Counted from the stretch's first letter, positions 29,066 to 50,623 are shown. The stretch: DNA of 64,000 bases from Flaccisagitta enflata (GCA_965153355.1 OZ231126.1:29698001-29762000), one strand, 5' to 3'. The notes: generated from the letters alone by a model not told the origin. Numbers and translations are program-made.

Positions 29066-31485
29066 ATCCACGGGTGATCGGGTTATGAATCAGGATATTG
29101 GTTCTTATATTCATATGTTATCCATTTGTTTTTAAGTAGCTTCCGCGTTTTCAAATGGTTTTAATCGGTTTATCACTTCATTATAAAACTGATGGTTGAA
29201 CAAGAGACGTCTGCACCATTGAATCGCGTCATTCCAGACACCATGACCTCTGGTGGAAGAAGAGGAGGACCACGACTCTCTTCTTAGCAACCCAAATTGA
29301 TTTAGATGTCGCCTTTGAAGCAGATCGGAAGCTCCATCGGAGTGCATCCTCTTTCGATCATTTTGTGTGGATGTGCCGGAATGTTCCAAGTCGGAGGAAA
29401 CACAGCGGTGTCAATATTATCAAATGACATTGGAAAACTAAACTGGAACAGGTGAATTCTCGGCTCAAAAGGTTGGCTGTCTTGGTATTTGAATGCTTTC
29501 CATATGTGGTCATGGATCAATTTGCCGGCAGGGATTGGTCTGTGAGTTCGCCATCTTCCTTCAGCTTGGCAGGTAGTTAAGGACGGATTGGTAGTTTTCT
29601 GTGCATTTTGAATGGAAGCAACAGTGGCATAAAACTCGCACCTGCTCCTTATGAACGTTTTTGGTGCTTACTAATAATAACAGACATTCGCCGCAGCCCG
29701 TCAAGAAACTGCACACGGAGCCATGTGGGTCCAAGAATATCAGTTGAGCTTCTTGTGACAATGAAACAAAAAAAAAAAAAAAAAAAAAAAAGACCGAAAA
29801 CACCGAAACGTCAACAATATCAACTGTCATCTTTCGCGATTCTTCTGGAGATCTCTGAGTCAACAGCTTTTCATTAATCAATTGTTTGCATCAAATGGCA
29901 ATTCTTGATGAATTTTGCAATCATTTTTTTTTGCCACATCGAGTTATTTCTCGATGTGGTCTATAACATAGCTTTGAACGTGTAGTGAGTCGTTGTTAGT
30001 TTGTTTGTTGTCGTGTCAACCCTTAAAAACTTGAGAACCACAACTCAGATGTTGATGAATCTTGGTCAGTGTTATTTTAGGGCATTAATAACCTGTGTAC
30101 CAACTTTCAACAACATTCATAAATATTTGATACCCTTTGTCTATTATTTTTGTAGTAATATTAATTCCTGGACTTGTGCAATTTACATAGGGGAAGGGTA
30201 GTGAAGGTTCACCAATGTTGTTCAAACTTGTTGTGAAGGTTCATTGCATCAATTAAAGCTCCCCTGCAAGATTTCAGATAATTCTGAGTATTGGTTTTGA
30301 AGATATTAGGGTATTTTGCTAGTAATATTAATTCCTGGACTTGTGCAATTTACATAGGGGAAGGGTAGTAAAGGTTCACCAATGTTGTTCAAACTTGTTG
30401 TGAAGGTTCATTGCAGCAAAAAAAGCTCCCCTGCAAGATTTCAGTAAATTCTGAGTATTGGTTAAGAAGATATAAGGGTATTTATGATTTACCTAGTCTA
30501 GTAACATTATTTCCTAGACTAATGATTTTTTTTTTTTGAAAAAATAAAACTTTTGGAGAAAAAAGATTTTTTTTTTGAAAAAATTTTGTGGTTATCATCT
30601 TTTATTTTTTTTGCGTTTCTGTACATATAGTGTATATGTAGTGATAAAACGAAGAGGCAATCTTTAAGCTTAAAAGTTAAAAAACTGAAAAAAGTTCTTA
30701 GGAAGGTGACTGAAGTTTTGATTTAGGTCATGGTGTACAGGAACAGGAAATTTTGGTTTCATTTTACTTTTTGCATGTGATATACAATTACAATCAAAAA
30801 ATATTATTAGAATTTCAGTTAGATATTTCTAATATAATGCATAAGGTGTTATAATAATGTATTTAGACCCAAAATACTGACTATAGTTTCATAATGATCA
30901 GAAGTGAAAATTAAAAATTTGAATTTTTTAAAAAATGGTGAACAAAATTTTGAAACGTTGTTAGGTGAAATTATATTACAGCCTCAGTTAAGAAAATTTT
31001 GCATTTCTAAGAATATGGCCCTTTTCTTATATGTTTTTAAAAATAGGCCATGTTTTCGGAAATGCAAATTTTTTAATTTTTATGCAATTATATAATTTCA
31101 CCTAACAGGAGTGAGATGACAAAATATAATTTTCTATAAAAAATCTTCTTTCTACCTTTTTTCGATACATTATGTACATCAAATCTGTATTTCAGAGATT
31201 ATCTATGCAAAAATTTACTGATCAACAGTTGAAAAATATTTTTTCAGAAAAAAAAAAATTAGCTAAAAATGATGTAAAAAATATCTCAAAAATTATAATG
31301 ACGCATGAAATTTCTTCTTCCCGTACACTGCGTCTTAGGAAAAAAGTCTTTCACTCAATTGTTTTCATCGTTTGTCCTCTGTTCTTCCTTCTACCTATAC
31401 TTTTGACCGAAATGAAGTGTGCCCCTGCGATGTTCACACTTGAAAATCATTAACATTGTCAAAGCTACAAAGACACTTACCGAGA

Positions 31486-31758
31486 ATGGTGACTGAGGAC
31501 AAGCCATATCGCGTGTCATTCGAGCTTCCCTTTGACACTGAGGAGCACGCGACAATCGCCAGTCGGACGTTGAAGGTGGATGCGGAGCCGAAGCGCAGCG
31601 CCACCGAGCGTCACTTTCAAGTGGACGACCGTCTCCTCAGAGTGGAGATTCGATCTTGCGAACCCAAATACCTGCGCGTCGCCACCAACGCGCTACTAGA
31701 CCATCTCCAACTCATCATCGAAACCATCGAGCTTTTTAAGCTCGAGAACTTTCAATAA
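31486..31758 (+). CDS. LAGE3: EKC/KEOPS complex subunit Pcc1/LAGE3, single exon, 90 aa
   Basis: ELPFDTEEHATIASRTLKVDAEPKRS...LRVATNALLDHLQLIIETIELF is the Pcc1 family pattern. The first ATG is at 31486. Confidence 0.88.
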   Translation: MVTEDKPYRVSFELPFDTEEHATIASRTLKVDAEPKRSATERHFQVDDRLLRVEIRSCEPKYLRVATNALLDHLQLIIETIELFKLENFQ

Positions 31759-31815
31759 ATCTTTTTTTTCGCTGTCAAACTATCACAATCTCTAAAGCGA
31801 ACGGTCACATGCAAA

Positions 31816-32881
31816 ATGGACAAATTCGTGATCCGAAAACGCAAAAGTAATGATGCAATGGAACTTGATCCGGAATTCGAAAAAAAGCGGGCAAAAACTC
31901 CATTACCGTTCAAAAAGATCCAATCTGACAATCTGGATTGTGAATACGGACTCGTTTACTCCCGCGAGGAAGCTCGAGATCTTCTCCAGAGGTGCGAGGA
32001 GGAACTTTCCTACTTCACGGGCCCATTGAGCAAAGTCTTCGTCTTTGGCAAATGGCACGATATTCCCAGAAAGCAAGTGAGATTGGACTGAGATCGTGCA
32101 TTCGTGATTGTAAGGATTTAATGACAAACAATATCCCAATCTCAATTGAGATGAAACCTTTCTGATTTCGCTCTTCTTTAATTCTCCTAGGTGGCATTTG
32201 GTGACGATGGTCTGACTTACAAATACTCAAACAATGTGGTTCCCGCGCGAAGTTGGACGCCTTTGATGCGTAAGATCAAGAACGACGTTGAAACCGCTTC
32301 CGGTCAGAGCTTCAATTTCGTCCTCGTCAATCGATATGCAGGTTCTCTTTTTTTCCCATTGCTGCTCAATGGTCCTTCGGCCTCTAATATATCTGGCTAG
32401 GCTTCTTGGCTGTTTGAATTTCATCCAAGTGAAATCAAAATCATTCATGCCACTTGTTGCCGCTTTCAATCAGATGGCGGTGACCACATGGGCGAGCACA
32501 AAGACGATGAAGAGGAACTGGTGAAAGGGTCTCCGATAGCTTCCTTATCTTTAGGCCAAGAGCGCGATTTTGTATTTCGTCATCAAGATGCACGCGGCGC
32601 CTCCGCAAAAGTGGGTCTTTGCTTTATTGAATAAGTTTTCTATTTGACTTAAGTACCTGACATAGTCTCACGCTTTTTGACGTTGCTCCTTAATTAATCA
32701 GAAATCCTCGGCCACGCCTCCGTCTCCTGTCAAGCTGAAGCTCGAATCCGGCAGCTTGTTGATGATGAACTTTCCGACCAACGACTTTTGGTACCACTCT
32801 TTGCCGAAACGTAGCGTCAAATCCGCTCCCAATGTCAGAATTAACATGACATTCCGTCACATGATTCACGTTCAAAGATGA
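31816..32881 (+). CDS. ALKBH2: AlkB homolog 2 DNA demethylase; exons 31816-32076, 32191-32341, 32474-32610, 32702-32881
   Basis: Motifs VFGKWHDIPRKQVAFGDDGLTYKYS, FNFVLVNRYADGGDHMGEHKDDE (HxD), SPIASLSLGQERDFVFRH, WYHSLPKR and RINMTFR. Confidence 0.93.
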
Positions 32882-32971
32882 TCTTGTTGCTACTGCGATT
32901 TGCGTTGCTATGTTAATGTTCCATTTTCTGCAGTGTTTGATCTTAGTATTTATTTGTCAAAACAATAAACA

Positions 32972-35271
32972 ATGACTTCTCACGGAAAGACGATGTTGAA
33001 GAAGAAACTGTCTGTGAAAGAGCGAATAGAACCATTTTACTTGGGTGGGTCTGTGGCGTATAGTGGCGATGGCTCGCGAGTCTACTGTCAATTCAAGAAT
33101 CACATCAAAGTTCTCAGCGTCGAAGCTGGCAAACAAATCGGACAATGCGGTGATTATTGTCATCTTATGTTTTCGGAAAATCTGTTAAATCTCCACTTCT
33201 TAATCAACTACAATGTGCGAGAACTATCATTTGTTTATCCTCTCTAGTCTATGGTTTTATGCATATTGTTATATTTTGAAATACCCAACTGCCATTCTAT
33301 TTCCAATTAACATATAACACCATTTTAATTAACAATTTAACAGGATCTGAGGATGACGAGGAATTGACTTGTTTCGCTCTGAGTCCCGACGATAGTCAAT
33401 TAGTCAGCGCTTCTCGCGGCTTGCTGATGGTACAATGGGATCCTCAAACCCAGACGCCGTCGAGGACGTGGAAATCCGCGCATCAACTTCCGGTCGAAGT
33501 CATGACCTTCGATTCCACCTCCACTCTCTTGGCCTCCGGCGGCGCGGATGGCACTGTCAAGATTTATGACATGGTCAGTTTGCTGATGAAGATGGTCAGT
33601 TTGCTACAGGGTGTTTCAAGTGAGTTGCAACATAAAGAATCGACATATCTTTGCTTGTAGGAGCTTAAATCAATTTCTGAAAAAAGTTTTATAAAGATCT
33701 TGGTCTTCAGTTTTTGCATGCAAAATTTCATGATAATCAGACAACTCATTTAGACACCACATATCTGAGAAGAACATATGCGATTTCTATCCTTATCAAT
33801 CTTTATTTTTTTACTTCTTACTGTACTTGGAAGTAGCTCTCTTTAGCTGCGTGCCATTTTTTTTACTAATTGAGCTAGAACCCTAGAATTGGTCTCAAAT
33901 CACAGATAATTTGTCAAAGATTTCAGATCTCTTAAAAAATTTGGCAGGTTTTCACTTTTTAAGAAAAAATTTGATTGACCTTTGCAAAAATTGCAATCAA
34001 TGTTTTGATGAGGTTTGACCAAAATCATTAGTAAAGCTATTAAGCGTTCAAAGTTTCCCTGATTTCAAAGCAGATAAGCGATCTATGTTAAATTATCTTT
34101 CATTTGAGACCAATCCCAAGGTATTAGCTCAATTCGTTTAAAAATAGCAGGCACTTGAAGTAAGCTACTGGTAGGTACATCTATAAAAAAGATAATTTTC
34201 CACTGGAAAAGACTGTTCTTTTGATTTTTTACTGACACACATCTATCAATTACTCAAAGTTGAGGTTTGGTATGAAGAAACTGAAGACCAAGATCTTTGT
34301 AGATTTTTTTTCAGAAATCATTTAGAGTTCCTAGAAGCAGAGATATGTCGATTCATCATGTTGCAACTCACTTGAAACACCCTGTATTAAAGATGGTCAG
34401 TTGGTTGAATGAGATGGTCGGTTGGTTGATTGAGATGGTCAGTTTTTGAAAAAGGTCTGTTTGTTGATAAAGACGGTCAGTTTGTTGATAAAGATGGTGT
34501 CTGATAAAGCTAAAAAGTGTTAATTAGTGGACGTTATGATGGTTTAACTCTATGAAGTTCTACTGCCACTTATGTTTTGCCCATTTTAGGTTCACGCTTA
34601 CTGCACGCACAATTTACGCATTCATAAAGGCGTCGTCAAGTTGGTTCAATTTCATCCCGACATTTCCCGACTACAAATTTTTACCTCGAGTGGAGATTTT
34701 AAGATAAGAGTTTGGAATCTTCAAACCAGCGAGATTCTGGCCGTCTTGGACAAACACTTCAGGTGCTTGAAATTTGCTGCCTCTGTTTTCCTCGACTTAT
34801 TCTTTTGTTCTACTGAATGCTGCACTTGTTTTTCTTTAAATTTTATTTTCCAGCTTTTTTTTCATTCCTGATCTTTTTTAGTTGCGGACACGCAACTCTT
34901 ATAAGAGGCTTTGTCCGTCCGTCCATCGGTTGGTTGGTTGGTCAGTCCGTAGAGATGATCAAGTTGAAAACGCGAAAAAGTCATATTTTTGATACTCCAG
35001 TTGGTATGTGAGTTTGTGAGCGTGTGGGAGGGGGTTGGGGGTGGGGTTGGGTTGAGGCTGGGGTTGGATGCCCCTGCCCACCCGTCCGCAACGATATTGT
35101 GACCCCGCGTCACTTGTTTTCTCCTCATGCAATTCTTGTTAATTTTGTTTTAACTTACCCTTCCTTTTCTTTCTTTGTCCTTCCCTCATTTCTTTTCCTG
35201 AGCCTTTCATCCTTTCCTGAGCATTTCATCCTTCCCTTTCTCCTTGCTTTCCTTCCTTCTTACTCTCCTTT

Positions 35272-35302
<31 letters not shown>

Positions 35303-36333
35303 CTTTCTTTCTTTTTTTCGTAGTCCCTTTCCTTTCCTTCTTCCCGCCTGCTTATCGCTCCTTCTTTCTTTTCCATTGTATTTCTTTCATTCTCACTTTC
35401 CATCCCTCAACCCTCGTCCTTAACCTCGCCTTTTCACTCTCCCCACGTCGATCCTTATCAGTCTGGTGACGTCTCTGGCATTCGATCGTGGAGGAAATTG
35501 GTTATTTTCCTCTTCCTGCGACCGGGTTCTCGTCGCCTGGGATTTGACGACATTTGAAGCCGCCAAAGTCACGGCGCTATCCGAAGACATTCGCGCCGTC
35601 ATCGCGCTTCCTCAGGACGCTTTGAAAGGCGCCGTCGATACGGGAAAGAAAGCTTCCTCGTCATCTTCCTCATCAGCCGCTTCGTCGGATTTGGCGCTTT
35701 GCGTCGGCAGTTCCGGCAAAATTCGCGTCGTCGATCCTTTCAACTCTCAAATACTCTTCTCTCAGAAAGAAAGTTTACTTGGAGGATTCGGCGCCGCGGA
35801 TGACGAGCAGCAGGTGACGGGCAATGATGTTGCAACTAAATCGCTTTAATAAGTACCGTATTCGCCAACATAATCACTGCTTGGCAGTTCATTGAAGACC
35901 ACTGAAATCGCGAGTCTTCTCTTTTTGGGCAGCGGCCCCGAAGGGCCGATGTCCTGTAGGACACAGGGTCGAACTGTCTGACAATACGTACGTCCCCCCC
36001 CCCAGCGCCAAAGCTTCTCAAGCCTAAAATATCCACCAAATAATATGGGAAATTGACAAAATGCAATTTACCCATTGAATAACATGGAAAATTAACCAAA
36101 AAAAAATGAAAAGTTTCCATTTGATAACATGGCATATTGACGAGAAGTTGAAATAAATGCAAAATTGAATATCATGGAAAATAGCTACCAAGGCCTCATA
36201 TATGCCCTCTAATAACATATGGAAATTCACCCCTCTGTCCTAATGGACATCGGCCCTTTGGGGCCGCTGCCCTGCTCTCACTCCAATTCTTCAGCTAATA
36301 ACTCCAAGCAGGGCAGTGCAATCCTTGGTTGAC

Positions 36334-36387
<54 letters not shown>

Positions 36388-39300
36388 CGCTCGCTCGCTC
36401 TCTCTCTCTCTATCTATCTCTATCTATCTCTATCTATCTCTATCTATCTCTATCTATCTCTCCCTCCTCCCCCCCCCTCTCTCTCTCTCTCCTTTTCTCT
36501 CCCTCCTCTTACTTCCATACCCCCCTCCCCTCCTCAAAAAAGTTGAAACTGTAAACTGATCTGTTTACTGTATTCAGGTTGATTCCGTGGTGTCGACTGC
36601 GATTTATCTTCGCTCAGCCAACTCAGTTTCTATCGTCTCCAACTTTCACCACATTTTCCACGCCTCACTCTATGATCTCTCCAAACCGGAAAAAGTCTTT
36701 ATGGGTGAGCTTGAATGTAGTTTGAATTTATCGATTTAAAAGTATTTTCTTGATCCTTATCTGTATACGGTTTCCATATAGGCTCGTGAATGTTGCTCGC
36801 TTGATCCACCCAACACTGAAAATATGATAATGATATCGTCGAACTCGTATGGATGAAGTTGAATGTAATACATACATCATTACATGTTCTTAAAGATCCG
36901 GTTTTTAATCGAGATCATTGAAACCAGTTTGGGGATTTTGTTGGTTGTAGGGAATAACGACGAGGTGCTGTCGCTACGACTCATTAACGACGACTCTTTA
37001 CTAGCCGTTGTCACTAATTCCCCCGACATCAAGCTTTACCATGTCGAGACTTTCAACTGCAGGGTAAGTAAATTGCTGCCGTCTTCTTTGGTATAGCAAT
37101 ATTTGCTGGCTGGCTGGCTGACTGACTGACTGACTGACTGACTGACTTACTGGAAAACGAACAAGTTTCTAAGATACCTACTATATGTAATTTCAAACCC
37201 TTCCTTATAAAAACCCCCAGCTTCTTCAAGGACACGAGAAGACGGTTTTGGGCATTGACAATAACGAGAGGCGACGCATTTTGGCTTCGGTCTCAAAAGA
37301 CGCCACGTGTCGCATTTGGAGTTACAAAGACGCCGAAAACGTCGTGTGCGTGGCGTTGGCTTCCGGTCACGCCAAAAGCATCATCGCCTGCGCCTTTTCC
37401 AAACTCGACGGCAGCTTCGTCGTAACTGGTTCGTGAGAGTTGCAGTTTTTGCCTCCTTACCAACTTAAGTGTTATATTTGCTCCTTTCCTATATGTAAGC
37501 TATATGTAAGCGTATGAACATGACCGCACATGCAGCATTCTTACGAGGAATTGCTTCTCACACCCATCTCCTTTCTTTCAAGGTTTGCTTCCACTTAACT
37601 CACGTTCAGTCCACCTTTAACACTTCACACTGTGATGGCCCTCTCCAAAGGCTTTCCTTTTTTCCCTCCCTCACTTGTTTTATCCACAATCCTGTCCAAT
37701 TTCTCCAACGTCGCTTTTCTGCGCGAGCTGTCTTTCATGTTTGTTGTTCATCTTTCCCCGACCCCGCTTGATCAGGTGGGGAAGACATGACGTTGAAATC
37801 TTGGAAGGTGTCGTCCAAATTGACCTCTTCCGCGGCCTCCACGACGGAAAATTCAGAAACCAAGAAACTGAAATCTATTTTCACTTCCGCCGCCGCTCAC
37901 GCCAAAGATATCAACTCCATCTCACTTTCACCCAACGACAAATTCATCGCTACTGCATCTCAGGACAAAACCGGTGAATACGAAACAGTCTTACGCAGGG
38001 TTTTATTCAATGTATTTAAGACCCAGTTTGAAGATATGCGTTCAAGGGCAACGGTGAAGAAATTGCCGAAGGCCAGTAAAATTCAAATCAAGCGATAATA
38101 TAAAATATCAGCTGCTTGTTAATTTACCTAAGGGATTTCCTCCGTATTTCTTCTCTCAGCTAAACTTTGGTCGAGTGAAGACGGGAAGCTGTTGGGGGTT
38201 TTCAGCGGTCACCGACGAGGTGTTTGGTGTGTCGATTTTTCACCCGTCGATCAAATCCTCGGTATGTCTGTGTTGAATTTGGAAGGAGTTACTCATGGCG
38301 TCAGTTTGCCCACCTTCTCTTCAGTCATGTTCATTTATGTTTGTCCCAACCTCGCCGTTTCTACCTCAATGCCTCTTTTTTCCTCTACCCTGCTCTCTGT
38401 CTCTTTAACATGGTAACCCTTTCTCCTTCTCCTCCTCCTCCTCTATCTCCCCTTCCCCTTCCACAGCCACGTCCAGCGCCGACGGTACTCTCAAGTTGTG
38501 GGCGTTGTCTGATTTTTCGTGCATTAAGTCGATCGACGCTCACGACGCCTCCGTCTTGAATTTCTCCTTCGTCACTCGTGGCATGCAAATCGTCTCCGCG
38601 GGAGCTGATGGACTCCTCAAAGTGAGACACTGAAATTTGTTTGCTTCCTGACTGGTCTAGGCCACTCAGCCAATGTTGTGGTCCGGGAACTAAGATAGCC
38701 ATGATGGCAGATTTGAAAACTACCTCCTCCTCCTACTCCCTCTTTTCACTCTCTTCGATACTCCTCTTCCTTGCCTCTCCTCCCTCTCTCCTCACCCCTC
38801 CTCCCCCCGTTTCAGTTATGGACGATCAAAAACTCTGAATGCGCTGGAAGTTTCGATCTTCACGACGCCAAAATTTGGGCTTTGGCGACTGCCTCCAACG
38901 GCGCGCGTGTGTTGACGGGCGCCGCCGACGGCAGAATCCTCTTCCTAGAAGATGTCACCGAATTGGAGGAAATCGAAGAAGCTGGAAAAAGGGAAAAGAA
39001 AATATTACAAGACCAAAACCTCGCCAATTGCCTGCAGCAAAAGGTTTGATACCGTAATATGTGGCTTGTGCAACAATTTATCCTATATAAAACTCATACA
39101 ATTAATCAAAAGGAAACAGAAATTGAACAAAATTTGGAAAAGATATGGACATTTATATAGTGTAAGCTTCCATTACATACACATACATACCTAATCTGTG
39201 GTCTTTTGAAACACTATCAAAATTCCTTAGGCATATACTTTTTACTAAATGTGTCATATTTTCCTATCTTTAAAAATAAATATCTTAAGATTTTATTAAG

Positions 39301-40036
39301 AAATAATGAATATTTTAGGGAAAGGGTGTTGTTAGAGCTGTCTTCTGGCATTGATCGGGACCATCAACTCAGCCCAATTTTGGTTAGAGTTGACCTAATT
39401 GATAAAAGAGAACCAAGGTGTCCATATCCCTAGTTGAGCCCCTTTATCCTAATTAGGGGGGGTGGGATTTAGGAGTATTTATACTATATATTTGGTTAAG
39501 GTAATGATTTTAAGTGATTAAAGGGAAAATGGCCTTCATCCTCAAAGAAGATATATCATGAAGGGTAAAAAAGTTTTAGTACATGTCCAAAAATTTTCTA
39601 TCAAACCATACAGCTTCTGGTCATCAGTTGGAGTCCTGTACCTTAAAGGGTTTCGACCCATATATATATACATATATACATACAAAAGTATCCACATACA
39701 TATATATACACCTCCAAGACCCAAGTACAGGCGGGTCGCACTTCAACAAAAGTGCCCTCCACTGTTTGGTTTGAAGAGATCAAGAAAATCTTCAGGAATC
39801 GGCCATGGGATTGAAAATCATGTGTATCATGTGCCGCTTGAAATAAATGAAATAACATGTTGAAATTTTTATGTCGTTCATTATTGAACATCGGCGGCTG
39901 ATTTTCATTTGTTTTCTGGCTCTTGGTAATTAAAATCGTCATACATATGTACTCAAGAAAGCGATTAAATGAGGGAGATTTCCATTCGAGTGCAAAACTG
40001 CAGATTTTACCCTTGCAACTCTCTTTCTTTCTTCTT

Positions 40037-40077
<41 letters not shown>

Positions 40078-40165
40078 ATATATATATATTATTCTCTATG
40101 TATATCTATATATATATATTTATATTATCTCTCTCATCTCTCTCTCTTTCTGTTTCTCTTATCTC

Positions 40166-40216
<51 letters not shown>

Positions 40217-40734
40217 TCTCTCTTCTCTCTCTCTTCTATCTCTTTCTCTCTCTCTCTAAAATATCTCTCTCTCGCTCTATCGTCTCTATATATATATATA
40301 TATATAACAATATATATATATCTTATTATATCTTTATTATATCAAACGCTCTTCTATTATAAATAACTATATATTATACATATATATATATATATAAACT
40401 TATCTATATCTTATATATCTCGCTCTTTCTCTTCTGTCTTTCTCTATTCTTTATTATCTATCTCTTCGCTTTCGCTCTATCGCTATATATATATATATAT
40501 ATTTTCTCGCTCTATTCTCTCTCTTATATATATAAATATATAAATAACTCTATAATTATTATATCTATATTATATATATTATATATATATATCTCTCTTT
40601 CTCTTATTCATCTCTCTCTCTCTCTCTCTCTATATTCTCTCGCTCTTCTATATATGCTTATATATTTATATATAACATCGTTAACTTTTATTAGCATATA
40701 TATAACTTATATATTATTATAACATATATATCCT

Positions 40735-40767
<33 letters not shown>

Positions 40768-40912
40768 ATATCTATCTCTCTATTTATATCTATCTCTATT
40801 ATCTCTCTTATTCTCTCTATTTCTCTCTTTCTCTTATCTCACTCTCTATTATCTCTCTCTATATATCTCTTTCTATTATATCTATCTCTTTCTTTCTCTC
40901 TTCTCTTTCTTT

Positions 40913-41005
<93 letters not shown>

Positions 41006-42094
41006 GTCTTGTTTCGATTTCTGTCAGTGTCGACGACTGTCTGTCTAACCTTTGTTTTTCAGTCAATCCTTTTTCTGTCAATATTCTTTCTGTCAATCCT
41101 TTTTCTGTCTTCACCGAATCTCTCCTCTTGTCTGTCTTTCCTTTCTTTGTCAAATTGAATCTCTCCCTCTCTCCTCGAATGACGTCAAACTTGCGTCAGA
41201 GAGGAAATTGACGTCAGGATTGTGGAGTTGCAATCCCATGATTACGCGCGTTTGCACGTGCCTAATAGACGAACAAACAATCTCTCCCGTTTTACCTTAA
41301 TGAAGAAAATTTTTTATCTTTATGAGCCAGTGTTTGCGTCCGAGAAATTCCAATTCTAAATTCTCGCGAGTTACACAAGTCGTTTAAATTCGCCGACTCG
41401 CGACGCGTTTTAAGGCTTTGGCCGTCTGTTCCTTTTCTTCTAATTTTCTTCCCATAGCTCACTCCTCTTCTCTAATATCTACCAAATGGATTGTCATTCT
41501 GCCCCATCCCCGCCCCCTATCCTTTCATTACCTTTTCCACAGGATTTCACGAAAGCGTTTATCCTGGCGCTGGACTTGAATCGGCCTCGCGACTTGCTAA
41601 AGATCTCCAACTCTCTCCTGTCCCTTCCCGATTGGCGCCCGCGTCTCGAGTCTATTCTCAAGCGTCTCCGCGTCGAGGATCAAGTCGAGGCGCTGCTGTC
41701 TCACGTCAAGACGTGGAACGCCAACGGAAGAACGTGTAACGTGGCGCAGACGCTTTTGGAGCTTCTGTTGCGCGTGCGCGACGTGGACGAACTGACAAAA
41801 GACGTGCCTAATATTGTCGGAATCGTGGAAAGTCTGACGCCGTTTACGCAGAGACATTACGACCGACTGCAGTTGTTGACGCAGCAAGCGACGTTTTTAG
41901 ACTATCTTTGGAACTCTATGAGACTAGAAGCCACGACGGAAGAAGATAATGGTGACAATGAGAACGAGAATGATTTTGATAACGTGATCGAACGGACTAA
42001 AGCTGAGGATTCTAAGATGGAAGAGGACGGTGGTGACGCTGATAGGGACTCGGATAGCGGAGTTATGGAGGAAGATAGCGAAACGGAAACATGA
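32972..42094 (+). CDS. TBL3: Transducin beta-like 3 / UTP13 (SSU processome WD40 protein); 12 exons: 32972-33149, 33344-33573, 34590-34762, 35462-35813, 36578-36704, 36951-37063, 37221-37428, 37776-37973, 38160-38261, 38467-38621, 38816-39043, 41543-42094
   Basis: Motifs IEPFYLGGSV, FDSTSTLLASGGADG, AHAKDINSISLSPNDKFIATASQDKTAKLW, GHRRGVWCVDFSPVDQIL, and a Utp13 C-terminal domain (WNANGRTCNVAQ, PFTQRHYDRL). Confidence 0.95.
33607..34384. mobile_element. Tc1/mariner-like MITE in TBL3 intron 2
   Basis: TA|CAGGGTGTTTCAAGTGAGTTGCAACAT...ATGTTGCAACTCACTTGAAACACCCTG|TA. Confidence 0.92.
34874..35120 (+). mobile_element. Short Helentron/DINE-1-like repeat, representative copy. Relatives at about 5504-5761, 8260-8492, 11585-11784(-), 11930-12444(-), 16679-16866, 23489-24071, 25885-26433, 27842-28030(-), 45961-46113(-), 46745-46842(-)
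   Basis: T-run, 5' hairpin AGTTGCGGACACGCAACT, (GTCC/GTCG/GTTG)n microsatellite, and 3' CCTGCCCACCCGTCCGCAAC...CTTGTT. No TSD evident. Confidence 0.7.
35922..36337 (+). mobile_element. Second dispersed family with subterminal inverted repeats (relatives at ~47146-47710, ~49560-49697, ~63001-63800)
   Basis: GGGCAGCGGCCCC...GGGCCGATGTCCTGTAGGACAC at the left. GGACATCGGCCCTTTGGGGCCGCTGCCCTGCT...AAGCAGGGCA at the right. The interior is variable and repetitive. Confidence 0.75.
40020..41000. repeat. (CT)n/(AT)n low-complexity tract in the last TBL3 intron
   Basis: Directly visible. Confidence 0.95.
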
Positions 42095-42244
42095 TTTCAA
42101 GTCATTTATCCTTGGTTTTGAACGGCGCAATTGTGATCTTTCTTGTTATTATCTATTTGTTGAGAGGAGCGATTTTACTTGTTGTTGATCGTTGAAAGCC
42201 TTTTCCTTTTTCCAGGACCCTCAAATAAATAAGTAAATGATAAA

Positions 42245-45200
42245 ATGTCTCTGGCGGAGGAGTTGTTGGCCGATTTGGAGGATGATGACGCAGAGGTGGA
42301 GGAAGAAGAGGAGCACGACATCGCTGGCGAGAATGTCCTAGATACCATCAAGGAGGAGGATGAGGAAGAGGACGATGACATGGACGTCCACGACGGCGGT
42401 GGTGGTAGCAACAATGTAAGCGACGGTACGAAAGTAAAACAGGAAAAACCCTCTTCTACTTCCTCCATCGGCGACACTCGCGGAAAATCCATCCACGCCG
42501 TAGCCAAACTTAGCGGCTGCAAACGGTTCGTCGACACGATGACCGAATTGAGAGACTTTGTTCAAAAGCGGGTGACGTCTTTCATCTGCGGTCCGGCGGA
42601 GGCCGATCCCGAGTACCAACTCATCGTCCGCGCCAACAATCTAGCCGCCGAAATCGACCACGAGATGGCCACCGTCCACAAATTCGCCACTGACAATTAT
42701 TCCAAACGATTTCCGGAACTCGAATCTCTCGTACCCAATCCTTACGATTATATCAGGACGATCAAAGCTTTGGGCAATCAAGTGCAGAAGGCCAAAAGCA
42801 ACGAAGTCCTGGCGGAGATCCTGAAACCCGCGACGATTATGGTGGTGAGTGTGACGGCGTCGACGACGCAAGGCACGGATCTATCGCCGGACGAGTTGCA
42901 ACGGGTTTTGGAGGCCGTCGACATGGGGTTGGAACTGGTCGTCGCCAAGGAAGAGATCCTCCGTTACGTCGAGAGTCGTATGGGCGTGTTCGCGCCCAAT
43001 TTGACCATCATTTTGGGCGCCCCGACGGCGGCCAAGTTGATGGGCGTAGCCGGTGGATTGACTAACTTAGCGAAGATTCCCGCTTGTAACGTTCAGTTGC
43101 TCGGGTCCCAGAAACGTGGCGGCGCCTCGTCCGGATACAGCAACGTCTCTACGCTGCCGCACACCGGATACATCTTCCACAGCCCCGTCGTTCAGGCCGC
43201 GCCGTCGGTGAGTTGGGTGTGGTTAGACTTGAACATCACTCGTTACAGTAGTACATGCGGCCTTTCTTTTTGATTTTCTTTCTTTCTGTCTGTCTGTCTC
43301 TTTCTTTCTGCCTGCCTTTCTTTCTTTCTTTTTCTTACTTCTTCCTTCTTTGTTTTTTTTTTCTTTCTTTCTTTCTTTCTTTTCCTTTCTTCCTTTTTCT
43401 TTCCTTCTTTCTTTTTTCTTTCTTTCTTTCTATCTTTCTTTTTCTTTCTCTTTCTGTCTCTTTATCTTTCCTACTCTTTCTTACTCTTTTTCTCTTTCTT
43501 TCTCATTCTATCTCTCTTTTTTTCTCTCTTTCAGTCTTTCTCCCTTTTCTTTACGTAGTGGCGTTCCTGTTCCTCCTTTTCTTGGCCTTTCGTTTTCCGT
43601 AAATGCCTTTCTCAACAGAGTCAATAATTGTTCGAACTGGAACGAGTCCAAGCATCTCTAGAAGATGGTTAATCAAGCATATTGGGCCGTCGTGTTGTGA
43701 TGATTGAATGTTTTCGGTCGGTCTGTTGATCAAAACCAAACTTTTTAGCGTTTCAAGTAGCGATTTTCGCTCTATTGCCGCTGCCCACCCGCACGTGAAT
43801 GAGGTTTCCGTGTGTCTGGCCTTTTCATATTTCATTGTCATAACCGCAGTAATATGATACAGTTATGAAATCCTGACCGACCGACTGACAGACAAAAGTT
43901 TTGTAGTCACACCTCTTGCCTTTTAAGGGAGATGCTGATGGGCGATGAAAAGATTAGTTGGTGGGGTAGACGAGACCTTCTCCCTCTTTGCAGTTTTGTA
44001 TCAGAAGACATTCAGAAGTATCTAGTAACGTTTGTCTGTTTTGCAACTTGAGTTGCGCAATCTGTTTTATTGTTAGACTGTTGCCCCCATGACGTCACGC
44101 CTATCGCAAACGAAAATTCGGATATAACTATTTTATGATTAGAAACGTGATGCAATCGATTCCAGAATGAATAAACTCCGGCTTGCTTACCTCATCGTTG
44201 ATTACAGTCAATGACGCAAACGGTGGACCCGGAGGAAGAAATCAGGAATTCAGGGCATTCTATGGCTGTTTTCTATTCTTGCCTTCTCTTATCGAGCTTC
44301 GCTTTTGACGAATCGACTGACGTCAAGCGATGTTTCCAATTGCCATCTGAGGTCCAAATTTCGATGGGGTTGCGTCATTCAGACGGTTTGGTAGTTGAAT
44401 GATGGTTATGTAACTTAATCTTATGGCTATGATGTAAGAGCCCTGAGTTAGGAGACGAAAGGGGAGCAAGAACCTCTGCGACAACTTAAGTCTCGCTTCG
44501 CTTGTCTTTTTTCTCAGGATCTCCGCTTTAAAGTTCAGAAGCTTGTCGCGGCCAAGGCGACTTTGGCTGCCCGCGCTGACAGCCTCCATTCGGCGTCTGA
44601 TGGAAGCATCGGCGACAAGTTCCGCGCCGAACTCGAGGCCAAAATTGACAAGCTCATGGAACCGCCGCCCGTCAAAACCGTCAAAGCGCTTCCTCTGCCA
44701 CTCGAAGGACAACGGAAGAAGAGAGGAGGCAGAAGGTTTGTCTTCATTTTCATCTCCTCTTCTATCCTCCCTTTACAGATCTCCCTTCGTTCGCCTTTCT
44801 TTGCATTCTTCGTTTTCATCTCTCCCATCATTCCTATTCATCTTCTTATCCCTCCCTTTTCTTTTCCCTTCAGCTCCACCCTCGTAGCCTTTTTATCTCT
44901 GCATTTCTTTTTTCATCTTTTATATGAATCCTCTCCTCTCACACTCACCTCTTTGTGTCCTTTATTTTCATCCTATTTTTCCTCGCATCCTTTCTTTTCG
45001 GTCTTTTCTGCCCCTCATCTCTTCCCGTTACACCCCCCTCCTCTCATACTTCCAAGTTCCAACTTGTCTCTCCTTAACTCTTTTCTTTTCATCTTTTCCT
45101 CCTCCTCACATCACTCTCTTTATCATTTCCCCCTCAATGCACCATTTCTTTTCCTCTTCTCTTTTCCTATCAGTTTTTTTCTGTCTTCGGTTGTTAACCT

Positions 45201-48179
45201 TTTGGCCATCAATTTGGCAGCTGTCTCTCTTTTTTGCTTGCGTTTGGCACCTGCTTTTTCCAATCAATAGGGAAACAAAGCCTGATGCAGGATAAATTCT
45301 GTTGCATTTCGATAGGCTGTGTTTCTCACAAAAACACGCACGCTGTCATACGCACACTTCCTCAAAATGACCTCCTTTAAAAAACAGAGCACCCACAAAA
45401 ACACCCTTCCCCCTCCCCCACGGCCTACAGACACTTATCTACCAAAATTTGAGGTACCACATAAACACCAATCACCATACGCTTGCCCCACACATTATAC
45501 AAACAGAAAATAAAGGCATATTTGCAGGCCTGTATATTGTTCCGTATTCCCGGTGGGGGGGGGGGAAATAATCAAAGGGTTTGAAGAAAGGGAAGGAAAA
45601 GGAAGGAGGAAAAAAGAGAAAAAAAAGAAAAATTGGGGAAAATATAATTTTTGGCAATGGAAAATCATAAAACATGATGAGTAACATATAATTTAACACT
45701 ATTTAAACCTTAAACACCCAGTTTTAGTGGTTTATGGGGAAGAAAAACATTGATTTGGTAATGCGACGCGATGCGTCGCGGGGAAGAAAATCAAAGGCAG
45801 GGGGGGGGGGAAATAATCAAAGGTTATGGAATTATATACATGCAATTTTGTCTAACCGAGTGAGCTGCTGACACACCGAAACGTAGTTTGAAGAAATCGC
45901 TCGTTTACGACTAGAAAGCGTTCTTTATTATTCTTTTATGCGACCCGGAACTGCGCAGAAACAAGGCCGTATATACGGCAGCATTAGTCGCGGATGGGTG
46001 GGCAGGAGTGGAAAACCTCGAAAAGTGACTTTGTGACCGACGCGACGGACGGACGGACGGACGGACGGACGGACCGAAAAGGGGCTTATAGAGTCGCGTG
46101 TCCGCGACTAAAAACGATTGTCGTGAAATGTTGATTCTTGTTTCTTTTCCTCTCTTTGCATTGTTTGCTGAGTCATTCTCTCAGATTGAGTCGAACGAAA
46201 GTTCAAAAATCTCCTTTGCTTTGCACCGACTGCGTTGATTTAGTTTGATCTTTGATAAATCGAAGCCAAGCCGTTTTAAACGCTCGTATGTAAAGTCATT
46301 GCCTGGTTGTTTCGATTTATCGTTCGTTGCTGCCTTTTGCTCACTTTGTAATTTGCAACGTTCGACAACACCGTCGGTATGTTGAAGTGTGTCTGTATGT
46401 TGAAATCTTCGACATTGCTAGTTACTATACGATGCCATCTCTTTGACTCTAACCAGCAACCTGTTAAGTGTTAACCCTCTACAGATCAAAGCGTAATTGA
46501 ATGCGAGGCCCCAATGAAAACTGTAGCAGCCCCCCCAAGAGCCTAGTATACTAAAGGCCTCAAGCTGGGAATTGGGCCTCGAGGCTGGGATTTGGGCATT
46601 GAGGCCGGGATTTGGACATTGAGGCTGGGATTTGGGCCTTGCTGGGATTTGGGCCTCAAGGCTGGGATTTGGTCTTGAAGGGGAATGGGGGGGGGGTACA
46701 GAGAAGGAGGAGGAGGAGGAGGAAAAATTTCTCCTGAGTGAAAGTATGTCATCGGCCCCTTCGGGACCGACCGACCAACCGACCGACTGACCGACCAACG
46801 GACCGACATAGTGGGGTGGAGTTGCGTAGCACGCAACTTAAAATTGCCTTTTTGTCCGCGACGGAATACCGCGACGGAATACCAATTTGATACTTTGAAG
46901 TGCTAGAACTTGAGCTAGGGAACAAAATTTTAAAAAAACCCTCTGATGGCGCCATTTGTATTCTCATAAGCTTTCAAATGATACCTCAATCATAACCCTA
47001 GCTTCAACATACCGGGCTCTAGAGGGGCTGCTACAGTTATCTTTCCTGAAAGTGGGGGCCTCTCGTTCAAATACGCTCTAATCTATACTCTCCCTTCCGA
47101 GTCGGAAGTTTTGACATCCTCCTTCCACCTCTGCCTATTCGACTCTTTTTGGGCAGCGGCCCCAAAGGGCCAATGTCCTGGGCCAATGTCCTGTAGGACA
47201 CGGGGGATTTTCGAGACGTCAGTCCGTCTATCCGTCCGTCCTTCCGTCCCCCCTTGGTCATCGGAGCTTCAAGTCTGCAGTCTCAGGCCTGATTTTGGCC
47301 CTCTGAGCCCTCAAATTAGTCCTTTCAGACCTCAATTTAGCTCTTGAGAGCTCAAATCAGCTCTCCAGACCTCATATCTGCCCTCAAGACCTCAAATCAG
47401 CCCTCCAGACCTCAAATCCACCCTCCCGGCCTCAAATCAACTCATCAGGCCTTGAATTTGTCCTCCAGGCCTCAAGCCTGCCCCCCAAACCTCAAATCTG
47501 CTCTTCTGGACTAAATTCTGCCATCCCGATTTCAAATCTGCCTCAGGATGTCTCGAAATTCACCCGTGTCCTGCAGGACACGGGACCCGTGTCCTACAGG
47601 ACATCGGCCCTTTGGGGCCGCTGCCCTGCTCTCACTCCACTTCTTCACTTGATCACTCCAAGTAGGGCATCGGGCACCGCTGACCATGTGCGATCCTTGG
47701 ATGACTAGTTAAACCCTACCATCCTCTCTCTTTTTCGCTTTCAGGTACCGAAAAATGAAGGAGCGATTGGGAATGACTGAGATTCGCAAACAAGCGAATC
47801 GTTTGAACTTTGGCGAGATCGAGGCCGACGCTTATCAAGATGATTTGGGCTTCTCTATGGGAACGTTGAAAAAGGGTGGCAAAGGATCGGGTGGAATTCG
47901 CGCCGCGCAAGTCAACAAAGCCACCAACGCCAGAATGTCGCAAAAATTACAGAAGCATTTGGCCAAACAACAACAGGTGTGCTTTCAATCGATATTCTAT
48001 GCAAGTTTCTGCGTGTGTCGTTTGCTCCTTAGAATATGACGCTTTTGGATTGCTTTCCCATGACGCAGTGATAGACAGAGATCTCTTTTGAAGTTGAAGG
48101 TTTGCGATCAGAGGCTCTTATTAGTTGTGATACACTGATAATCCACTCTCACTAAAATGTTTTTAGATCATTGACAAGC

Positions 48180-48268
<89 letters not shown>

Positions 48269-49694
48269 TTCTCTCCTTTCTCTCTTTTCTCTCTCCTTTC
48301 CTCTCTCTCTCCTTTCTCTCTTTCTCTCTTTTCTCACCTTTCTCTCTTTTCTCTCTTTTCTCTCTTTTCTCTCCTTTCTCTCCTTTCTCTCCTCTCCTTT
48401 TTTCTTTCTCTCCTCTCCTTTCTCTCCTTTCTCTCCTTTCTCTCCTTTCTCTCCTTTCTCTCCTTTCTCTCCTTTCTCTCCTTTCTCTCCTTTCTCTCCT
48501 TTCTCTCCTTTCTCTCCTTTCTCTCCTTTCTCTCCTTTCTCTCCTTTCTCTCCTTTCTCTCCTTTCTCTCCTTTCTCTCCTTTCTCTCCTTTCTCTCCTT
48601 TCTCTCCTTTCTCTCCTTTCTCTCCTTTCTCTCCTTTCTCTCCTTTCTCTCTTTCTCTCCTTTCTCTCCTTTCTCTCCTTTCTCTCCTTTCTCTCCTTTC
48701 TCTCTTTTCTCTCTTTTCTCTCCTTTCTCTCCTTTCTCTCTTTTCTCTCTTTTCTCTCCTTTCTCTCCTTTCTCTCCTTTCTCTCCTTTCTCTCCTTTCT
48801 CTCCTTTCTCTCCTTTCTCTCCTTTCTCTCCTTTCTCTCCTTTCTCTCCTTTCTCTCCTTTCTCTCCTTTCTCTCCTTTCTCTCCTTTCTCTCCTTTCTC
48901 TCCTTTCTCTCCTTTCTCTCCTTTCTCTCTTTTCTCTCCTCTCTCTCCTTTCTCTCCTTTCTCTCCTTTCTCTCTTTTCTCTCTTCTCTCTCCCTCTTTC
49001 TCTGTCCGTCTGTCCCTCTCTTCGTCTCCGTCTCTTCCTTTCCCCTTCTCAGGGCTTTGTCTTCAAATCCAAGCAAAATGGCAAATCCAAGCAAAATGGC
49101 AAAATCCAAGCAAAATGGCTAAATTCTGGCTAGAAAACCTGAATTTTGGTCAAAATTCAATCATTTTGGCCCCTAAGATCTAGATCCTGGTTTCTTATAC
49201 CCAGATTCTGGCCTCTAAAACCCTAATCCTAGCCTCAGAGATCTAGATCTTGCTCTCTGTGACCCAGATTCTGGCCTCCAGGACCCAGGACCTGGCCTCA
49301 AGGCCCTAAATCCTGGCCTCAGAGACCCAAATCCTGGCCTCAGAGACTCCAACCCTGGCCTCTGAGACCCAGATTCTGGCCTCAGAGACCTAGATCCTGG
49401 CCTGCTCCCCCCCTCTACTTAACCTACAAACTTCTCAAGAAGAGCAGGGGTACCCTTGTCCATATACTGCCTTTTGTCATTTCTCCATGTTATTCAATGA
49501 GAGTTTGAATAACAGGGCTTCCTAGACAGAAGGCTGGCTGAGAGAAGGACGGACGGACGGATGGACGGACGGACAGATTCCCCCTGTGTTCTACAGGACT
49601 TCGTCCCCTTCGGGGCCGCTGCCCTGCTCCCCCTCAACCTAAATCACATACTACTCAAGCAGGGCACGGGTACCGCTGACCACTTACTGCCTTT

Positions 49695-49764
<70 letters not shown>

Positions 49765-49981
49765 GCTCTCTCTCCCACCCTTCCCCCGCCAACAGACTAC
49801 CTTTGGCGGTACAACGACGATTAAGAAGACTATTTCCGGAACTGCTTCATCGGTGGCGTTCACGCCGCTTCAAGGACTGGAGATCGTGAACCCGGGCGCG
49901 GCTGAAAAGAAATCAGCCGACGACAACAAATACTTTTCTCAAACCTCGGGATTCCAGAGCATCAGACCTAAAACTACGTGA
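42245..49981 (+). CDS. PRPF31: U4/U6 snRNP protein Prp31; exons 42245-43207, 44518-44735, 47745-47976, 49796-49981
   Basis: Motifs MSLAEELLADLE, EADPEYQLIVRANN, YSKRFPELESLV, GVAGGLTNLAKIPACN, RKKRGGRRYRKMKERLGMTEIRKQANR and SGTASSVAFTPLQGLEIVNP. Confidence 0.97.
48183..48995. repeat. (CT)n followed by an 11-bp polypyrimidine minisatellite
   Basis: (TCTCCTTTC)-type units giving ~800 bp of pure pyrimidine on the + strand. The unit length varies along the tract. Confidence 0.9.
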
Positions 49982-50623
49982 TCCATTTCCACGTGATATG
50001 ATGAAGCGTGTGATCTCTTTTTTGAGCTTCATTATTCTCACAAATTTCATTCCTTCTTTTTATTTCTTCCCTCCTTCCTGCCTACCTTCTTTTCCGCTTA
50101 CGTCTCCGCTTACCTTTCTATTTGTCTACTTCCTTTCTGCCAATCTTCCGGATCATCTTCCTTTTCTGCGTCCCTCCTCCCTCAACTTCCTCCATGCTCT
50201 CCCTCATCATGACCCCTTATCGCTTTCATTCTCATCTTTGTTATTCACGAAAATATATCGTGTATTTGTTATTGTTATTCCGTGAAGATATTTGTCTGAA
50301 CCCCATGATTCGCAGTCAAGTGGCCATGTTAGCTCTCGAGTCGAGACTAACGGCAAATGGCCCCAACTTGCATCATCGTCATCGAGCGTTCCTCCCTCTC
50401 TCCTCCCCTGTCCTTGTAGGTTATTTCATCGCAGTTATCACAGCTAAGTAGTCAGATCTCTCCCTTTGCCTCCTTCGTGGCAGAGCCCACCGGTTTCGTT
50501 TCATTTCGAGTACCAAACACGCAATACAGAGTAAGTAGCCAACATCGCGAAGTTAAAAGAGAAAAATTTAAAAGGAAATCTATCAATAAAAGTAAAACCG
50601 TAAAAGAAAAAAAAAAAGAAAAA

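Follow-up and report, generated by a model that had tools for sequence, protein, structure and literature searches.

Our analysis suggests that the window, the whole 64-kb stretch of DNA under study, comes from a planktonic chaetognath, and that the genes LAGE3, ALKBH2, TBL3 and PRPF31 probably constitute one polycistronic unit of the spliced-leader type, in which the first pair is dicistronic and the following boundaries lie at CAG sites. The use of a spliced leader is supported by a leader fragment joined to the LAGE3 mRNA at an AG acceptor, and the messenger of the first two genes appears to be dicistronic, with the spacer between them retained in the assembled mRNA. Spliced-leader operons are already well described in chaetognaths, and the part that appears unusual here is the presence of the first two genes on one mature mRNA.

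Gene series and spacing

Seven consecutive genes were read from the sequence of the 64-kb window, with + strand orientation throughout as the earlier note had claimed, and the stop-to-ATG gaps, which were re-read from the sequence and are quoted as CDS-to-CDS distances, agreed with the spacing given there (Table 1). LAGE3 heads the series because the adjoining upstream gene, which is weakly DENND11-like, sits on the minus strand. The coding sequence of TBL3 (32972-42094) was divided into about 11 exons over a span of 9,123 nt, and that of PRPF31 into four exons (about 42245-43207, 44518-44739, 47743-47985 and 49787-49981) over a span of 7,737 nt, which were placed by tblastn with P0002 (99% identical, 525 aa). 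The Pfam score for ALKBH2 was obtained with P0147, a full-length ALKBH2 that is 98% identical. The three short spacers contained neither a tandem repeat nor a within-window repeat, which bore out the proposal that they are free of insertions, and the introns of TBL3 and PRPF31 carried microsatellites and eight short dispersed-repeat intervals of 77 to 245 nt. Sites were called acceptor-like when a YAG was accompanied by 12 or more pyrimidines in 15 positions, a definition which gave 1.2 sites per kb on the + strand; among the distal genes such sites ended at 50419 and 53386. The closest named relatives of PRPF31 were only about 50% to 55% identical, the nearer relatives being marine records, and a scan of metagenome contigs for this gene returned 8 loci with 34% to 68% identity, that is, distant relatives only.

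Table 1. Genes, transcript parts and junctions of the series
Feature	Position	Strand	Gap to preceding gene (nt)	Remarks
SL acceptor of LAGE3 mRNA	31372..31417	+		pyrimidine-rich tract, AAG at end; outron upstream
Dicistronic LAGE3-ALKBH2 transcript as assembled	31418..32933	+		one 1210-nt contig, depth 30
5'UTR of LAGE3-ALKBH2 transcript	31418-31485	+		contig
LAGE3/Pcc1	ATG 31486, stop TAA 31756-58 (CDS 31486-31758)	+		Pfam Pcc1 6.9e-22
Spacer 1 (57 nt)	31759..31815	+		T-rich tract, single AG (AAG, 31795-97); kept in contig
ALKBH2	ATG 31816, stop TGA 32879-81	+	57	Pfam 2OG-FeII_Oxy_2 6.4e-31
ALKBH2 CDS exons	31816-32076, 32191-32338, 32471-32610, 32702-32881	+		contig
3'UTR of LAGE3-ALKBH2 transcript	32882-32933	+		contig
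Junction ALKBH2/TBL3	32918..32933	+		...ttccattttctgCAG; poly(A) directly after G 32933, genome continues with T
TBL3 5'UTR (putative)	32934-32971	+		
TBL3/UTP13 (Utp13)	ATG 32972, stop TGA 42092-94	+	90	Pfam Utp13 1.8e-30, WD40
Spacer 3 (150 nt)	42095..42244	+		strong acceptor-like site ccttttcctttttCCAG, end 42215, 29 nt before PRPF31 ATG
PRPF31	ATG 42245, stop 49979-81	+	150	Pfam Nop 2.2e-58
RRM protein	ATG 50624, stop 52979-81	+	642	Pfam RRM_1 2e-26
PP2A catalytic subunit	ATG 53483, stop 58725-27	+	501	Pfam Metallophos 9.1e-16
AP1G1	ATG 60899 to window end (64000)	+	2171	Pfam Adaptin_N 1.8e-15

Leader and transcript of the LAGE3-ALKBH2 pair

The RNA evidence consisted of assembled contigs from one marine metatranscriptome run, compared over 30500-33700; such contigs lose rare variants, and two genes on one contig need not come from a single molecule. 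Three raw-read runs contributed 0 reads and carry no weight for or against any reading. The LAGE3-ALKBH2 contig (contig record 3) begins at 31418, directly behind a genomic AG at 31416-17, and carries ahead of this position nine non-genomic letters, TTGTTTAAA, which match the last 9 nt of the chaetognath SL forms 2, 3 and 4 in all positions (9/9; Table 3 of PMC2481426). The letters recovered represent 9 nt of a chaetognath leader of 33 to 36 nt, and the contig stops at nine because SL forms 2 to 4 diverge at position -10 (PMC2481426). The leader forms were found in both orders of chaetognaths and are unlike those of other phyla according to the authors (PMC2481426); judged from the leader match, the source organism is most likely a chaetognath. 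The 9-mer occurred 0 times in the window in comparison to 2.5 expected, which ruled out a nearby cis 5' exon as the origin of the nine letters. A search of the window for SL-like sequence gave one match with 2 mismatches in comparison to 0.47 expected by chance, and no Rfam family was found in it. We infer that the LAGE3 promoter must lie further upstream, in an AT-rich interval of about 29.9-31.4 kb. Transcription would start upstream of 31418; at the level of contigs, the leader is joined at the AG at 31416-17, and the spliced and polyadenylated mRNA is dicistronic, with LAGE3 and ALKBH2 staying on it side by side.

Within the contig, the three introns of ALKBH2 were removed at GT..AG joints (32076/32191, 32338/32471 and 32610/32702), and 19 A after 32933 form its end. 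The contig represents RNA and not DNA, because the depth was not raised in the intron and upstream bins at this pair. For P0147, too, the longest contig measures 1210 nt. Spacer 1, which is thus spanned by one contig from a single run as a transcript across a gene boundary, showed a 3-nt insertion behind 31761 and a C>G change at 31770; the LAGE3 stop shares bases with an AATAAA at 31754-59, and the sites in this spacer are possible candidates for a minor trans-splice and poly(A) site.

Equal contig sizes suggest that LAGE3 and ALKBH2 also occur together on transcript contigs of several related taxa. Between 29 LAGE3-family and 35 ALKBH2-family records, 7 pairs had longest contigs of identical nucleotide size, in comparison to a null mean of 0.93, and 7 was reached in 0 of 20,000 jitter trials; a full-length spliced ALKBH2 was present in 6 of these 7 pairs. 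A leader-spliced monocistronic ALKBH2 mRNA is expected to have a size of about 850 nt, and the contigs of the 28 full-length ALKBH2 records ranged from 911 to 1633 nt, with none near that size (0/28).

Downstream boundaries and alternative readings

At the 3' end of ALKBH2, the poly(A) site directly follows an acceptor-like ...ttctgCAG (CAG 32931-33), 38 nt ahead of the TBL3 ATG, no PAS-like hexamer was found between 32872 and 32933, and the sole AATAAA of spacer 2, at 32964, lies downstream of the poly(A) site. There is no room for a TBL3 promoter, because the ALKBH2 mRNA ends so close to the TBL3 start codon. We infer that CAG 32931-33 is the trans-splice acceptor of TBL3, so that the dicistronic mRNA would end, at the poly(A) site observed, on the very CAG that TBL3 would use; if this CAG serves as both, there is therefore no intercistronic DNA at the boundary, similar to the case of Ciona. 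At CAG 42213-15, the boundary of TBL3 and PRPF31 is probably organised in the same manner, ccttttcctttttCCAG being, from its sequence, a candidate for both the TBL3 poly(A) site and the PRPF31 trans-splice junction. TBL3 itself was found on a separate contig (record 4; 790 nt, depth 7), which begins without loose letters at 32951, a position 17 nt downstream from the proposed junction, contains the joint 33148/33343 and continues into the next exon. In the one run, no contig crossed spacer 2 over 30500-33700, and leader letters were absent from the assembled contigs at 31798, at 32934 and at the start of the TBL3 contig. In general, the results support in part the claim that LAGE3-ALKBH2-TBL3-PRPF31 is a polycistronic operon, with the RRM, PP2A and AP1G1 genes as possible further members, through the LAGE3 leader, the LAGE3-ALKBH2 contig and the poly(A) at CAG 32933; the retention of spacer 1 in the assembled mRNA departs from the picture of the earlier note.

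The retained spacer could also be read in terms of a fully resolved ordinary operon, in which most LAGE3 mRNA would receive its poly(A) after the AATAAA at 31754-59, most ALKBH2 mRNA would receive its leader at AAG 31795-97, and the LAGE3-ALKBH2 contig would stem from precursor reads or an assembly merge; we regard this as possible, if on the unlikely side. In its favour, spacer 1 shows an AATAAA, a T-rich tract and a single AAG in the classical arrangement, this AAG is similar to LAGE3's own AAG acceptor, and the properties of assembled contigs given above would allow it; in addition, a LAGE3 mRNA that is monocistronic, with a size of about 430 nt, might escape collections in which the shortest contig seen was 505 nt. 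However, the contig passes at depth 30 through both putative spacer-1 processing sites, no loose contig end (leader or poly(A)) was listed near 31780-31798, including 31797/98, none of the 28 full-length ALKBH2 records was on a contig as short as about 850 nt, and six transcript contigs from related taxa seem to carry both genes.

It is very unlikely that TBL3 and PRPF31 are instead tightly packed independent genes, with promoters in the last exon or 3'UTR of the upstream gene and with acceptor-like sites that are coincidental or belong to a 5'UTR intron. With the poly(A) exactly after CAG 32933, a start site would have 18 nt at most and intergenic DNA would be absent, trans-splicing is used by the organism, and the same geometry proved operonic in Spadella (PMC2481426) and Ciona (PMC1488885), even though the TBL3 contig shows no extra letters at its start (32951), no TBL3 leader was seen in the contigs, and the frequency of acceptor-like sites on the + strand would allow chance occurrences. 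Another reading, which we hold to be highly improbable, ascribes the nine letters to the leader of another trans-splicing marine animal or to a distant cis exon. Such an origin would be compatible with the recovery of only 9 nt of leader and with a window that holds no rRNA, SL RNA gene or other marker, but the letters agree without a mismatch with the end that three chaetognath leader forms have in common and are absent from all 64 kb, no named animal exceeds about 55% identity in PRPF31, and for the 10-mer TTTGTTTAAA, among the literature matches listed, the chaetognath paper is the only one that deals with a leader. The chaetognath operon with a dicistronic first pair is thus the reading we prefer.

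Comparison with known systems and translation of ALKBH2

The claim that operons occur in chaetognaths agreed with the literature, in which many such operons are reported for the phylum (PMC2481426, PMC12460157), with about 18% of genes in operons in chaetognaths and 1,470 validated operons in Paraspadella gotoi (PMC12460157). The working definition in P. gotoi is at least 2 genes less than 250 bp apart, at least 1 of them leader-bearing (PMC12460157), and here the three short gaps were less than 250 bp and LAGE3 was leader-bearing. As in the chaetognath operons described in PMC2481426 and PMC12460157, the leader has the same 3' end, co-oriented housekeeping genes lie less than 250 bp apart, the first gene is trans-spliced, and the upstream poly(A) site coincides with the downstream acceptor, a putative one in our case, or is only a few bases away from it; in the RPS14-PCNA operon of Spadella cephaloptera 3 bases separate the poly(A) site from the acceptor (PMC2481426). 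A difference from the operons in the passages of these papers is that the LAGE3-ALKBH2 pair appears to stay joined in mature mRNA. A literature search for papers on LAGE3 and ALKBH2 together with operon found none.

In Ciona intestinalis operons, poly(A) follows the acceptor AG, 16 of 18 cases are without AATAAA within 40 nt, and dicistronic cDNAs exist (PMC1488885). The ALKBH2 poly(A) similarly lies directly after an acceptor-like AG with no AATAAA within 40 nt upstream. The two systems differ in phylum and in leader, the downstream leader was demonstrated in Ciona and is a prediction here, and, in contrast to the Ciona junctions that have no intercistron, spacer 1 is retained and forms a genuine intercistronic stretch of 57 nt. 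With the SL1-type operons of C. elegans, as described in PMC1488885, the unit would share intercistronic sequence that is minimal or absent, and one leader for the first and downstream genes, whereas the characterised cases have AATAAA in the upstream cistron and the ALKBH2 3'UTR does not. In animals and in green algae, stable dicistronic mRNAs (for example PMC4528330, PMC7896298) likewise combine two conserved ORFs and a short spacer on one capped, polyadenylated mRNA, but those genes are described without leader trans-splicing, and the first ORF here shows no ATG depletion and translation of the second ORF is putative.

The locus provides an example, at the level of coordinates, of a probable chaetognath operon that has support from RNA, in the form of the LAGE3 leader and a poly(A) site at the predicted TBL3 acceptor with no cleavage signal. 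Should TBL3 use this acceptor, a junction of the Ciona type would also occur in a protostome phylum, and the case bears on the mechanistic coupling of poly(A) site choice and trans-splicing. For genome annotation, clusters of this kind should not receive separate promoters.

The apparently conserved LAGE3-ALKBH2 dicistron would in addition be a convenient test case for the translation of a second cistron in a trans-splicing animal. Translation of ALKBH2 would probably rely on a minor form to which the leader is spliced at AAG 31795-97, or else on reinitiation within the dicistronic mRNA. It seems doubtful that the pair is constitutively left joined as a leader-capped dicistronic mRNA conserved across chaetognath species, with ALKBH2 translated second by reinitiation or a similar process; if true, one operon would have both a boundary that is left intact and a boundary made by splicing. 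Both ORFs use one reading frame, lie at a distance of 330 nt and have only one stop between them, and the contig's 3-nt indel is frame-neutral. Stop-codon readthrough to a LAGE3-ALKBH2 fusion was rejected as a conserved mechanism, since the variant P0172 adds 12 residues and then stops, and it is also disfavoured by a spacer 1 that is more variable than the coding sequence. Leaky scanning past LAGE3 was disfavoured as well, given a strong LAGE3 start context (A at -3, G at +4) and internal ATGs that are not depleted, 1 being observed in comparison to a codon-shuffle mean of 1.1.

Gene order, spacing and repeats

The earlier note had described seven co-oriented genes and proposed LAGE3-ALKBH2-TBL3-PRPF31 as an operon, and re-reading of the sequence returned the same stop-to-ATG gaps, the last of which had been put at ~2170 nt (see the table). 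The identities of the genes were upheld by Pfam and, for ALKBH2, by a full-length relative with 98% identity (P0147). Since the next gene upstream, which is weakly DENND11-like, lies on the minus strand, LAGE3 is the head of the co-oriented series.

Co-oriented genes as read directly from the sequence (window coordinates)
Gene	ATG	Stop	Strand	Distance to next ATG (nt)
LAGE3/Pcc1	31486	31756-58	+	57
ALKBH2	31816	32879-81	+	90
TBL3/UTP13	32972	42092-94	+	150
PRPF31	42245	49979-81	+	642
RRM protein	50624	52979-81	+	501
PP2A catalytic subunit	53483	58725-27	+	2171
AP1G1	60899	beyond window	+	

In the short spacers, which the earlier note had called insertion-free, neither a tandem repeat nor a within-window repeat was found. 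Microsatellites and short dispersed repeats are present in the introns of TBL3, which spans 9,123 nt, and of PRPF31, which spans 7,737 nt. Intron microsatellites that are pyrimidine-rich on the coding strand are very long (48183-49021, 40019-41001, 43274-43541) and make both the GC skew and the AT skew strongly negative; one intron microsatellite consists of ~90 copies of TCTCTCCTT, the others being (CT)n, (TA)n and (TTTC)n. Between LAGE3 and its minus-strand neighbour lies an AT-rich interval, the expected site of the promoter of the proposed unit, which carries a 167-bp unit twice with 94% identity (30148-30483); for this interval, up to six further partial copies occur within the window. 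At 15264-17694, 22757-23239 and 63041-63792 there are large arrays of tandem or satellite-like type, in which several strands have long open frames.

RNA contigs and the 5' end of LAGE3

The RNA evidence consists of assembled contigs from one run, the marine metatranscriptome X1, over 3.2 kb (30500-33700). The run search returned seven marine metatranscriptome runs with 0.06-0.26 of the sampled words and four runs of one organism with 0.38-0.42, and three raw-read runs picked because they share the species label of these best-matching four, X8-X11 (X15, X19 and X22, a sample of ~2-3% each), gave 0 reads over 30500-33700; this label may denote an organism other than that of the window. A spacer-spanning transcript, as asked for in the earlier note, is seen at contig level in record 3 of X1 (1210 nt, depth 30), which aligns to 31418-32076, 32191-32338, 32471-32610 and 32702-32933 and contains LAGE3, the entire 57-nt spacer and ALKBH2, with three GT..AG introns spliced out. 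Within the spacer it differs from the genome by a 3-nt insertion and one substitution. The depth of X1 in the intron bins is the contribution of the exon parts of record 3, and the bins at 30607-30820 and 33175-33281 are empty; the source of the signal is therefore RNA and not contaminating DNA.

At its 5' end, next to 31418, record 3 carries nine non-genomic letters, TTGTTTAAA, and 19 A follow 32933 at its 3' end. In the genome, an AG at 31416-17 is preceded by a pyrimidine-rich tract, which makes 31418 a 3' splice junction. The same nine letters end spliced leader forms 2, 3 and 4 of Spadella cephaloptera and Flaccisagitta enflata, as listed in Table 3 of Marletaz et al. 2008 (PMC2481426), where these forms diverge at the tenth base from the 3' end (T or C). 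Several leader forms on one gene are reported in chaetognaths (PMC12460157), and if several are used per gene, the assembly graph would branch at the tenth base, which explains a match of nine letters. The 9-mer is absent on both strands of the 64-kb window, where 2.5 occurrences are expected, so that it does not come from a nearby upstream exon. Chaetognath leaders are like those of no other phylum according to the authors of PMC2481426; for PRPF31, the closest named relative shows ~55% identity and marine relatives show 99, 94, 88, 85 and 70%. A planktonic chaetognath is thus very probably the source of the window, and trans-splicing of LAGE3 is very probable as well.

In P0168, a relative of LAGE3, the predicted protein has an N-terminal extension (MSLLFK...) ahead of the normal start, in which LFK would be the product of TTG TTT AAA, the last nine bases of the leader; judged from this protein sequence, the transcript of the related taxon may also be leader-bearing. 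The LAGE3 5'UTR holds a short upstream ATG with a 7-codon uORF (31430-31453). Upstream of the acceptor, ~31184-31355 is partly covered by X1 contigs with a summed depth of ~11, and one 934-nt contig matches 31292-31337 alone and then departs from 30500-33700 without a canonical splice site; a repeat, a piece of outron or a different transcript could account for it.

The LAGE3-ALKBH2 spacer and translation of ALKBH2

The leader that the earlier note had proposed to look for at spacer AG sites was seen ahead of LAGE3 and not in the spacer to ALKBH2 (31759-31815), where neither leader nor poly(A) ends are listed in X1 and the contig continues through. Both proteins are well conserved among relatives, and comparison of 29 LAGE3-family with 35 ALKBH2-family records gave seven exact matches of longest-contig size (1077, 1187, 1282, 1531, 1581, 1603 and 2394 nt) in which the sources matched too; a jitter null gave a mean of 0.93, and seven was reached in 0 of 20,000 trials. 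The matches fall in LAGE3 clusters with 78-88% identity to the window. ALKBH2 is full-length, and therefore spliced, in six of them, the seventh being a genomic ENA record. The contigs of the 28 full-length ALKBH2 records measure 911-1633 nt, with 24 of at least 1050 nt and none near ~850 nt, the size expected for a leader-spliced monocistronic mRNA. These results suggest, indirectly, that several taxa have a dicistronic LAGE3-ALKBH2 mRNA as their main assembled form.

The LAGE3 ORF and the ALKBH2 ATG share a frame at a distance of 330 nt, interrupted by one TAA (31486-31818), and the 3-nt insertion of the X1 allele preserves it. In P0172, a variant from a relative, the frame stays open for 12 more residues before it ends, which makes a conserved fusion unlikely; readthrough of the stop codon was considered and is unsupported. 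Leaky scanning was considered and is likewise unsupported. The spacer itself shows the classical order, with an AATAAA that overlaps the stop of LAGE3, then a tract rich in T and a single AAG like the AAG acceptor of LAGE3, which makes a minor fraction resolved at this spacer plausible from its layout, and such a fraction would be the simplest route to ALKBH2 translation.

Downstream boundaries and known operons

The poly(A) of ALKBH2 is joined right after ...ttccattttctgCAG at 32933, and because the next genomic base is T, the tail is non-templated. Only 38 nt separate this site from the TBL3 ATG, in line with the point of the earlier note that such spacers can hardly hold a 3'UTR, a promoter and a 5'UTR. 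A separate TBL3 contig of X1 (record 4; 790 nt, depth 7) starts at 32951, at most 18 nt from the ALKBH2 mRNA end and with no leader letters, and runs into the next exon with intron 33148/33343 removed. The spacer has no AATAAA-like hexamer upstream of 32933, the sole one lying downstream at 32964. In the Ciona operons described by Satou et al. 2006 (PMC1488885), which lack intercistronic DNA, the upstream poly(A) likewise comes right behind the AG at which the downstream gene is trans-spliced, and in 16 of 18 there is no AATAAA within 40 nt. For the RPS14-PCNA operon of Spadella, poly(A) site and acceptor are reported three bases apart (PMC2481426). From this matching geometry we infer that CAG 32931-33 is the putative trans-splice acceptor of TBL3.

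Chaetognath trans-splicing and operons were described in 2008 (PMC2481426). For Paraspadella gotoi, PMC12460157 reports 10,197 of 21,072 genes as trans-spliced and 18% of genes in operons, defined as genes spaced by <250 bp of which one or more bear a leader; these operons are enriched for housekeeping functions. The present cluster falls within this definition and is therefore probably a further example of a known chaetognath operon type. The literature search for LAGE3, ALKBH2 and operon returned no description of this combination, in agreement with the earlier note, and supplementary operon tables may list an orthologous operon; among the papers listed, none dealt with dicistronic mRNAs in chaetognaths.

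Between TBL3 and PRPF31, an acceptor-like ccttttcctttttCCAG, stronger than the ALKBH2|TBL3 site, ends at 42215, 29 nt before the PRPF31 ATG, with AATAAA downstream of it only. The contigs of 12 full-length PRPF31 records in relatives (1637-2381 nt) are too short to include the whole of TBL3, which fits separate mRNAs for the two genes, with room for partial overlap. An upstream ATG in the PRPF31 5'UTR (42237-42239) overlaps the start. Acceptor-like sites near the distal genes end at 50419 and 53386, the former a strong one within the 642-nt gap (49982-50623), which also has an A-rich run just before the RRM ATG. The longest PRPF31 transcript contigs of a near-identical relative (2277 and 2244 nt) have, by length arithmetic, about the size expected if the PRPF31 3'UTR nearly fills this gap.
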